Source: a virus. From it: 64,000 bases of DNA. Under the pieces are notes generated by a model. It had not been told where the DNA came from. It did not search any database and worked only from the letters and a program-made list of their open reading frames with translations. The DNA is taken from positions 29,561 to 93,560 of IMG/VR virus record IMGVR_UViG_3300005336_000001. The stretch is one strand, 5' to 3'. Shown in pieces: positions 24,310 to 25,182 of the stretch. A program made the position numbers and the translations under genes. How positions within the stretch are numbered: the first letter of the stretch is position 1; each line of letters opens with the position of its first letter.

Positions 24310-24840
24310 TTAGGCGCTGGCCGAAATGGCTGCTACCTCTTTTTCCGCTTTATGTGCGGCCGTCTTGGCTTTCAACGCAGCAATGCGTTGGGGCCTTGCT
24401 CTGTTGAGCAATTCAATTCTGTCCTCGTTGCCCTCATACCACTTTTTAGCATCAGCTAACCACTCAGCGAACTTTTGCATGGTTCCCTGAGTGTCATCCT
24501 CATCCTTGGTGAAACGCTCCACCATGGCCTCAATATCAGCCCATCGTGGTTCACTGCTGCCGTAACCTTTTAGGACACCATAGCAAATGATCTCCATCGC
24601 GGAGTATGGAATTCCCCGGAGAGCACCATATGCAAGGTGGGTGGTACGAGCTTCTATCTTAAGTTCATTTCTGTGACCACGGAGGGTCCAGAAAGCCTTT
24701 TCAGCATGAGCCACAGAGGCATACTTTGAGGCGTTGATGCGGCCCAGTTGGGCTCGCTTTTTCCACTTGCGTTCTTGACGCCTGATGTACGTCATTTCAG
24801 CCGCAAGGGACACGACCTTAACTTGTAGATGGGTTTTCAT
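24310..24840 (-). CDS. Basic hypothetical protein, putative target of the leader attenuator
   Basis: 176 aa; its AGGAG RBS lies in the 3' arm of a hairpin. Confidence 0.8.
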   Translation of the reverse strand: MKTHLQVKVVSLAAEMTYIRRQERKWKKRAQLGRINASKYASVAHAEKAFWTLRGHRNELKIEARTTHLAYGALRGIPYSAMEIICYGVLKGYGSSEPRWADIEAMVERFTKDEDDTQGTMQKFAEWLADAKKWYEGNEDRIELLNRARPQRIAALKAKTAAHKAEKEVAAISASA

Positions 24841-24846
24841 TTATAT

Positions 24847-24892
24847 CTCCTAAGGGGTTTTGAACTTTATACGCTACTCTCCCTTAGGGAGG
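24847..24892 (-). promoter_or_regulatory. Hairpin sequestering the Shine-Dalgarno of 24310..24840
   Basis: mRNA CU-C-CCUAAGGG pairs with CCCUUAGG-AG; the 3' arm contains AGGAG 6 nt before the AUG. Confidence 0.7.
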
Positions 24893-24917
24893 TGGCCCTC
24901 GTGGTAATCTAAGACAT
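24884..24917 (-). other. Recoded leader ORF: AUG UCU UAGA UUA CCA CGA GGG CCA CCU CCC UAA (M-S-X-L-P-R-G-P-P-P)
   Basis: Strong AAAGGAG RBS before AUG-UCU-UAG; the +1 frame after UAG encodes LPRGPPP-stop. Confidence 0.65.
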
Positions 24918-24918
24918 A

Positions 24919-25086
24919 TTACTCTCCTTTCGTCTTCGAAAATAGATCATAGAGCATGATCATCACCTTGGTCATAACCCAAAAACCTACCATTAAAAAC
25001 AGGAAGTTAAGACCCGTGTAATGTGGGAGGCTTTGAACTGAGCCTCCGCATCCACCATTTGAGCCGCACACGTAATACATGAACAT
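24919..25086 (-). CDS. 55-aa small membrane protein (below ORF-track cut-off)
   Basis: GAAGGA RBS; MFMYYVCGSNGGCGG..LNFLFLMVGFWVMTKVMIMLYDLFSKTKGE. Confidence 0.5.
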   Translation of the reverse strand: MFMYYVCGSNGGCGGSVQSLPHYTGLNFLFLMVGFWVMTKVMIMLYDLFSKTKGE

Positions 25087-25111
25087 TTAATGTATCCTTC
25101 AATGGGCTAGC

Positions 25112-25182
25112 TGGAGCCGGATGTGGGAGTTGAACCCACATCCTATGGATTTAGAGTTCCTAGGACCCAACCCGGACCCAGC
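25112..25182 (-). tRNA. Atypical 71-nt tRNA with 8-nt anticodon loop ACUCUAAA (CUA amber or UCUA quadruplet anticodon)
   Basis: Acceptor GCUGGGU/AUCCGGC plus U-CCA; T arm GUGGG-UUCAACU-CCCAC; anticodon stem UAGGA/UCC(A)UA; reduced D arm. Confidence 0.8.

Follow-up and report, generated by a model that had tools for sequence, protein, structure and literature searches.

A conserved tRNA-like gene and a matched stop-codon leader in related phages: a candidate natural four-base decoding switch

Organization of the locus

We examined a 64,000-nucleotide (nt) stretch of DNA from a soil phage, hereafter the window, which corresponds to bases 29561-93560 of the 93,560-bp contig IMGVR_UViG_3300005336_000001 and contains, all on the minus strand, a tRNA-like gene, a very short leader open reading frame (ORF), a hairpin and a gene for a 176-amino-acid (176-aa) protein. 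An earlier note on this DNA had read these four parts as a switch, in which the tRNA would decode a four-base codon at the leader stop and give access to an arrest peptide that exposes the ribosome-binding site of the downstream gene. The comparison of related phages described below supports such a tRNA-gated arrest leader, as far as conserved sequence and structure can speak for a mechanism.

The tRNA-like gene (25112-25182; 71 nt with an encoded CCA) begins directly past the stop codon of an upstream gene for a 256-aa protein. Its anticodon loop has eight nucleotides, A-C-[U-C-U-A]-A-A (25150-25157), and the middle four, UCUA (25155-25152), are complementary to UAGA. The leader starts 195 nt downstream of the tRNA. 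Its Shine-Dalgarno (SD) sequence, AAAGGAG (24924-24930), is separated by six bases from an ATG at 24917, which is followed by TCT, TAG (24911-24909) and an A (24908). The zero-frame leader (24908-24917) is thus only AUG UCU UAG plus A, with the candidate recoding site UAGA at 24911-24908. Read in the +1 frame, the sequence continues as TTA CCA CGA GGG CCA CCT CCC TAA (24884-24907), that is L-P-R-G-P-P-P-stop, in which the R-G-P-P codons occupy 24901-24890. The 5' arm of the hairpin, CUCC.CUAAGGG (24881-24891), begins 4 nt downstream of the initial base of the first Pro codon, and its 3' arm, CCCUUAGGAG (24847-24856), holds the SD AGGAG (24851-24847), which sits 6 nt ahead of the ATG of the 176-aa gene (24310-24840) at 24840. 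The tRNA-like gene, the leader with its +1 RGPP frame and the pairing between the leader end and the SD of the 176-aa gene were all present as the earlier note had described them.

Taken by themselves, the leader and the hairpin are at chance level. A loose leader pattern (ATG, at most six codons, a stop plus one base, and RxPP within 12 codons of the +1 frame) occurred twice in the genome compared with 1.9 times in shuffled sequences, and the z-score of the hairpin in the single sequence was just -1.5. The significance of the arrangement therefore derives from the conjunction with a cognate tRNA and from conservation in related loci. These were gathered through alignment of the 176-aa protein, which gave 23 loci from IMG/VR and 32 from metagenomes (labelled L001 and so on). 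The leader, the hairpin and the tRNA recur upstream of homologues of the 176-aa gene in both sets, in about 25 related phage lineages. An exact-pattern scan of IMG/VR for the LPRGPP leader returned only contigs that were already known through the protein.

A tRNA-like gene with an eight-nucleotide anticodon loop

The window tRNA is predicted to have a 7-bp acceptor stem and a canonical T arm, and neither a D stem nor a variable loop. A 9-nt connector that includes GG leads from the acceptor stem into a long anticodon arm, in which helices of 5 bp and 3 bp flank a bulged A. ARAGORN labelled it 'tRNA-Pyl(cta)', at the cost of two mismatches in a 5-bp anticodon stem; in a better fold, GGA/UCC closes the eight-nucleotide loop A-C-U-C-U-A-A-A. 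With the Rfam tRNA model it scored under 14.8 bits, which was the score of a partial tmRNA hit. A dedicated covariance model was built from 13 copies, with which the window tRNA scored 70.7 bits. This model gave one strong match per locus, 25 distinct sequences in total, always 92-850 nt upstream of the leader, and in the five records that were searched whole the tRNA was single-copy and located at the cassette.

In the consensus over these relatives, a 7-bp acceptor stem with strong covariation is joined to the anticodon arm by an 8-10-nt connector with a conserved GG. The anticodon arm is built of helices of 5 bp and 3 bp, with a bulged A between them, and carries an 8-nt loop. Two or three bases are left unpaired before the T arm, which is canonical (5 bp, UUCRANY loop), and the 3' end has a discriminator base followed by a CCA that is encoded in most copies. 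Across the 13 modelled pairs, 91.6% of cells were paired in the 25 distinct relatives and 12 pairs had changed on both sides; none of 500 shuffles matched this structure score and no slid structure came close. The acceptor stem, the T arm and the UUCRANY T loop are present and covary across the relatives. A D-like pairing of 2-3 bp is possible in the predicted fold and would compete with the lower helix, with less support. We also considered that the element might be a phage attachment site (attP) or a tRNA fragment, and rejected this idea since the entire tRNA covaries as a structure.

The loop has 8 nt in all 25 relatives, and in 24 of them it reads NN-UCUA-AN or NN-UUCA-AN on the same scaffold. 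The base A after the anticodon is invariant; an A at this position is typical of tRNAs that read codons starting with U. Discriminator bases and acceptor stems vary between lineages, and no identity element could be named among the relatives. ARAGORN missed nearly all copies and named the called ones Pyl(cta), Arg(tct) or Glu(ttc), which may explain why the element lacks annotation. One distant lineage differs (L017:1956-2028): the tRNA that bears the UUCA bases there has a normal D arm and, according to ARAGORN, a loop of 6 nt (CUUCAA), and it lies upstream of a TGAA/RDPP leader; the key may have been rebuilt there on a second tRNA scaffold.

The +1 frame of the leader is the frame under selection

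In the close group, which comprises 13 distinct leaders, one to five codons are followed by TAGA or TGAA and then by L/Y/F-P/A-R-G-P-P in the +1 frame, and an SD-like site precedes every related leader. All substitutions in the R-G-P-P codons of these leaders are synonymous in the +1 frame: Arg is encoded by CGA, AGA, CGT or CGC, Gly by all four of its codons, the first Pro by CCA, CCT or CCG and the second by CCT, CCC or CCG. The zero-frame peptide is unconserved and changes freely (ITTRAT, ITKRAS, ITTWPT and others). In more distant homologues (28-43% identity), TGAA is followed by SSIRAPP, CIRAPPP, SCRDPP, YSARDPP, LPSNRGPP, LPRVRGPP or RNKSPP, so that RAPP, RDPP, RGPP or SPP stands at this place and R-x-P-P is kept while all other residues change. 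LPRGPP agrees with the published R-x-P-P motif (x = Ser, Ala, Gly or Pro), and the RDPP and SPP variants lie outside the published set. These comparisons support that the +1 frame is the frame under selection. The earlier note had called for such SD-ATG-TAGA leaders with RGPP upstream of homologues of the 176-aa gene, and they were found, with one to five codons before a TAGA or TGAA and with R-x-P-P as the wider motif.

The conserved peptide appears to be accessible only through the stop. In 22 of 23 loci the +1 frame is shut by an upstream stop with no intervening ATG, GTG or TTG, and the closing stop is often the TGA within the A-TGA-C of the leader's own start. With the frame closed upstream and no start codon of its own, a +1 event at the stop is the only way left to make the peptide. 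UAA is never used as the leader stop, which would fit a need to outcompete just one release factor.

A +1 event at the stop does not by itself call for the phage tRNA, and a prfB-like sensor of release-factor activity is one alternative, with the shift brought about by slippage or by host tRNA-Arg(UCU) or tRNA-Glu(UUC) out of frame and with the phage tRNA serving some other purpose next to it. From the second base of the stop onwards, the +1 codon is AGA (Arg) or GAA (Glu), both readable by host tRNAs, and prfB is an example of a +1 shift that a stop codon programmes (PMC5009743). Against this, the codon preceding the stop varies (UCU, UGG, GCU, ACG, UUG, UUC or ACC) and is unable to re-pair in the +1 frame, which argues against slippage as in prfB. 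The distance from the SD to the pre-stop codon also varies from 2 to 5 codons, and neither a slippery codon nor a stimulatory SD at a fixed short distance was found. Moreover, loci have either both the tRNA and the leader or neither, and the loop of the tRNA changes together with the stop codon of the leader. We consider this alternative quite improbable.

The +1 peptide also bears on whether the tRNA might be an ordinary triplet nonsense suppressor (CUA or UCA) of a phage with a changed code, in which case the leader would be read in the zero frame. Phages with reassigned stops do carry suppressor tRNAs, and CUA is the anticodon that ARAGORN assigned. Gene density, however, is normal under table 11, and in the window no specific gain in long ORFs was obtained with TAG, TGA or TAA taken as sense, TAG lengthening long ORFs no more than the other reassignments did. 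This indicates that the phage is not stop-reassigned. A loop of 8 nt in all 25 relatives, and conservation of the +1 peptide and not of the zero-frame peptide, are likewise contrary to triplet suppression, which appears extremely unlikely to us.

A candidate small ORF for a hydrophobic 55-aa product (24919-25086, minus strand) lies between the tRNA and the leader, with its TAA stop 1 nt before the leader ATG. The related loci hold a small ORF different from that of the window. In some relatives (L001, L004) an ORF of 55-68 aa at this place enters the leader in frame and has TAGA as its own stop, and the one in L004 is Cys-rich and zinc-finger-like.

The anticodon loop follows the leader stop codon

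In the related loci, the loop sequence matches the leader. UCUA-loop tRNAs (NN-UCUA-AN) stand beside TAGA leaders in 18 of 18 distinct sequences, and UUCA tRNAs stand beside TGAA leaders in all seven distinct cases (L012, L013, L015, L017, L018, L021, L049), with no crossed case found. L049 has the LPRGPP peptide as in the TAGA clade, together with TGAA and UUCA. In the protein tree, TGAA occurs in deep lineages and in L049, and TAGA forms one clade. No lineage departs from A as the fourth codon base or from U at the 5' end of the anticodon.

Loss of the two parts is likewise shared. Two or three groups within the TAGA clade (L025/26/30/35, L038/43 and L044) have lost the leader, and these loci are also without the special tRNA, having only ordinary tRNAs such as tRNA-Met. 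In four loci without the tRNA and leader (L026, L030, L043, L055), another conserved element was observed about 60 nt upstream of the homologous gene, ...CTTGCGAGCCACCCCGCAGGACTTTATA...ACGGAGAA-ATG, which includes a CTTGCG/CGCAGG inverted repeat and may be another regulatory RNA that replaces the switch.

Complementarity of four bases could also serve an RNA-RNA mechanism without decoding, in which the anticodon loop, in the tRNA or in an unprocessed tRNA-like part of the transcript, would pair with the leader UAGA and refold the leader in a T-box-like manner. Besides the complementarity itself, the close linkage of tRNA and leader, probably on one transcript, and the position of the tRNA gene abutting the stop codon of the upstream gene agree with this. 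Yet four base pairs are weak, Rfam found no T-box-like platform, and pairing alone leaves unexplained the SD and AUG in frame with a stop, the closed +1 frame and the purely synonymous variation of RGPP. Such a mechanism is, in our estimate, very unlikely.

Predicted pairing of the ribosome-binding site begins at the Pro codons

In the minimum free energy (MFE) folds from the first Pro codon to the gene start, the SD of the 176-aa gene homologue (AGGAG, AGGAA or GGAG) was paired in all 20 loci that were checked; counted from the first base of the first Pro codon, the segment that pairs with it begins 0-10 nt downstream in each of them. From lineage to lineage the arms have different sequences, as in UCCUAGAG/CUCUAGGA, CCUGAA/UUCAGG, CCUGAUUG/CAAUCAGG, CUCCGCA/UGCGGAG and CCUCC/GGAGG, and the two arms of the hairpin covary. 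The SD-hiding hairpin that the earlier note had expected in homologous loci was therefore recovered, together with a tRNA close by that carries the matching UCUA or UUCA in its 8-nt loop.

Entry into the +1 frame could also work by translational coupling in place of a peptide arrest, with the +1 ribosome melting the hairpin as it passes or terminating in it, and with RxPP either slowing it slightly or being kept for another reason, such as anti-SD pairing (CCUCC with GGAGG). Pro codons of the form CCUCC are indeed complementary to the SD, and in L001, L002, L006 and L007 the +1 ORF passes RGPP and the hairpin and ends at a stop inside the SD arm. What this leaves unaccounted for is that Arg and Gly are kept, with only synonymous codon changes, although neither belongs to the paired segment, that CCA, CCG and CCC are used for Pro despite weaker anti-SD pairing, and that R-x-P-P is retained in distant lineages while every other residue changes. 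Coupling in place of arrest is unlikely in our view.

The 176-aa gene and its genomic setting

The 176-aa protein belongs to a conserved phage family with no known domain. It has 75 homologues in the protein collection, the closest at 95% and 85% identity, of which none is named or carries a Pfam domain, and searches of PHROGs, Pfam, NCBIfam and PADLOC gave no hit. A PTH2 domain was looked for in this genome and in five related records and was not found. The structure, predicted with confidence (pLDDT 85), is all-alpha: a helical domain comes after a long helical hairpin at the N terminus. Profile search against the PDB returned nothing, the ESM Atlas gave no usable hit, and Foldseek against the PDB gave none at E<=0.001. 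VIA-align found only the generic N-terminal helical hairpin (Z about 10), for which the arms of SerRS and FemA/FemX were among many coiled coils; this match was uninformative and was set aside.

Exact matches to the region occur in contigs of four rhizosphere RNA libraries. One of these contigs spans 24816-25025, that is the leader, the hairpin and the gene start, and others cover the 176-aa gene and its neighbours. The contigs give a weak hint of expression, with DNA carry-over as a possible source. The tRNA was covered by no contig among these libraries, which proves nothing either way.

The phage genome (93.6 kb) is probably complete, given a 50-bp terminal repeat, and has a GC content of 48%. 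A replication module neighbours the locus on the minus strand, with a DNA polymerase, a sliding-clamp-like protein, a methyltransferase, a primase, an AAA ATPase and a VWA protein. The gene that adjoins the tRNA upstream (25183-25953, minus strand) encodes the 256-aa protein, which is very acidic, with long D/E-rich and K/A-rich tracts and about 60 conserved C-terminal residues (…GGTYYNILGKM…). This gene precedes the tRNA in L004 and L014 too; in L001-L007 a VWA gene is there instead. The phage also carries ordinary genes for tRNA-Pro(TGG) and tRNA-Gln(TTG) (window 32534-32610 and 35012-35088, minus strand) and for tRNA-Thr(TGT) (genome 1478-1564). L008-L010 and L027 again have a tRNA-Pro(TGG) near the cassette, and this deserves notice in a switch that would stall on Pro codons. 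A blastn search of the region against the 'phages' collection gave no match, and a scan of viral contigs with the single protein, and exactly with the 3' half of the tRNA, found nothing.

Proposed mechanism

Comparison of the loci shows that the parts are present and co-occur, that codon and anticodon are matched, that the +1 peptide is selected and that the hairpin arms covary. From these parts, the following mechanism can be proposed. The phage would make one unusual tRNA, in which the acceptor and T arms are normal, the D stem is missing and the anticodon arm is extended and ends in an 8-nt NN-UCUA-AN loop. Ribosomes would initiate on the very short leader AUG UCU and reach UAG-A. If RF1 acts at UAG, termination would occur 17 nt before the hairpin, the SD would stay paired and the 176-aa gene would remain off. 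If the phage tRNA decodes UAGA, the ribosome would advance four bases into the +1 frame, where L-P-R-G-P-P provides an RxPP arrest motif, and would stall with the Pro codons in the P and A sites. The stalled footprint would cover the 5' arm of the hairpin, free AGGAG and allow translation of the 176-aa gene. The competitor of the tRNA would be RF1, and RF2 in the UGAA lineages.

The geometry follows published RAPP complexes, in which the peptidyl-tRNA bears R-A-P and Pro-tRNA occupies the A site (PMC10951233); together with general knowledge of ribosome footprints, it implies that a stalled ribosome would cover the 5' arm and that one terminating at UAG would fall short of it. Three versions of the decoding step fit equally: pairing of four bases, zero-frame pairing of CUA or UCA with a +1 shift at translocation, and recognition of AGA or GAA, the +1 codon, by UCU or UUC. 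Charging and delivery of the tRNA, competition with release factor, the stall and the on/off logic would all have to operate as supposed. On the evidence of the related loci, we consider it likely that the phage tRNA directs +1 recoding at the stop, that RGPP stalls the ribosome and that the SD is thereby unmasked.

Several observations weigh against this mechanism or limit what the comparison can say for it. One locus is mismatched, L016 (L016:3315-3387, G008), where the loop AU-UUUA-AA faces a UGAA leader (LPRVRGPPQ) with a G·U at codon position 2; the case may reflect such a G·U pair, decay of the cassette or a tRNA that reads UAAA as well. The switch between UAGA and UGAA may be explicable by one or two evolutionary events, so the match rests mainly on long joint conservation rather than on a large number of independent covariations. 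The argument would then depend mainly on four plus four bases jointly kept amid divergence, plus one coordinated double change. The fourth base is invariant, and covariation cannot probe four-base pairing for this reason.

The behaviour of ordinary gene ends is a further difficulty. Relatives neither avoid nor enrich the cognate quadruplet there, and in the phage's own genome 10-11 of the 16-18 TAG-ending genes, by ORF-based calls, have TAGA, compared with an A after about 20% of TAA or TGA stops. It follows that decoding must be inefficient, context-dependent or tolerated, and it is probably inefficient or aided by the leader context. The +1 extensions past the TAGA ends of the own genome would span 0-53 codons, with no long +1 ORF after any of these gene ends, and the TAGA bias was not seen in relatives with the same tRNA.

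The tRNA itself is atypical, with no predicted D stem and a weak Rfam tRNA score, and its acceptance by a bacterial synthetase, EF-Tu and the ribosome is putative. As to the stall, RAPP was not enough on its own to arrest ApdA and ApdP stably (PMC7897499), and the nascent chain would have only 8 residues here. In several lineages (L001 type), the +1 ORF also crosses the hairpin and ends in the SD region, so that simple translational coupling could suffice without a long stall; such coupling could well account for part of the effect.

Relation to known systems

RxPP arrest motifs and attenuators that unmask an SD are established in ApdA, ApdP and ApcA (PMC7897499, PMC10951233), with SecM and its RAGP as the paradigm. 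As in ApdA, ApdP and ApcA, R-x-P-P here ends an upstream ORF and an SD-sequestering stem-loop that is predicted to open on stalling lies just past the stall site. The known RxPP arrest peptides, in contrast, are secreted or membrane 'monitoring substrates' of 100-170 codons whose stall is relieved by the translocon, whereas the chain here has 8-9 residues with a predicted arrest, and the regulated step would be access to the motif through a stop crossed in the +1 direction.

The likeness to prfB, which encodes RF2, is that the stop in a short zero-frame ORF would be the decision point, with the contest between release factor and a +1 event setting the output. In prfB, the P-site tRNA-Leu slips on CUU U, and an internal SD lies 3 nt upstream; the leaders described here have neither a slippery codon nor a fixed SD spacing, a dedicated tRNA is present, and the proposed product is a stalling peptide and not the regulated protein.

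Suppressor tRNAs with 8-nt loops (sufD, sufA6, SufB2) and engineered decoders of UAGA or UAGN are also established (PMC7803779, PMC4764823, PMC8481270). SufB2 pairs in the zero frame and then shifts by +1 at translocation (PMC7803779), and engineered UAGA decoding employs CU-UCUA-AA loops (PMC4764823). The phage tRNA shares with them the 8-nt loop, the 2+4+2 layout and the complementarity of the four middle bases to a four-base codon. Those tRNAs are laboratory mutants or designs on canonical cloverleafs, whereas the gene described here occurs naturally, is conserved, has a natural target to match and encodes no D stem. Metazoan mitochondrial tRNA-Ser without a D arm (PMC7609411) likewise has a connector in place of the D arm and keeps the T arm. 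Such mitochondrial tRNAs work in organelles with adapted synthetases and EF-Tu, whereas the tRNA here is from a bacterial phage and combines a canonical 7/5 acceptor-T helix with an extended 8-bp anticodon arm.

A review of non-canonical tRNAs mentioned no phage case. The earlier note knew of no description of such an arrangement; the literature searched, from which most subscription journals were missing, likewise yielded none of a natural phage tRNA that has an 8-nt loop and is paired with a leader.

Implications

Four-base decoding has been known from laboratory suppressor mutants and from engineering of the code, and not as a conserved natural device with its own tRNA and its own target. 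The device described here appears novel as far as we know, and no leader gated by such a tRNA was found in the literature searched. We lean towards a reading in which a dedicated orthogonal four-base pair (UAGA/UCUA, and UGAA/UUCA in sister lineages) is carried on a minimal D-stem-less tRNA whose sole use is as the key to a hidden arrest peptide, and which was missed by standard tRNA finders. It would be a natural quadruplet switch that reports on tRNA maturation and charging or on release-factor competition. More speculatively, the arrangement may be a gate or timer, by which the 176-aa gene comes on only once the phage tRNA has been made, processed and charged and outcompetes the release factor.

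If this is true, the locus would provide the first natural dedicated quadruplet, or obligate +1, codon-anticodon pair, and the tRNA would represent a new class of bacterial-type D-stem-less tRNAs that annotation pipelines have overlooked. Arrest-peptide attenuators would gain a new kind of input, with a tRNA as the 'key' rather than the translocon or a small molecule, and synthetic biology would gain a compact orthogonal switch together with a UAGA/UGAA decoder that evolved in nature. For the phages themselves, it would become testable why they gate one conserved gene on the function of their own tRNA.

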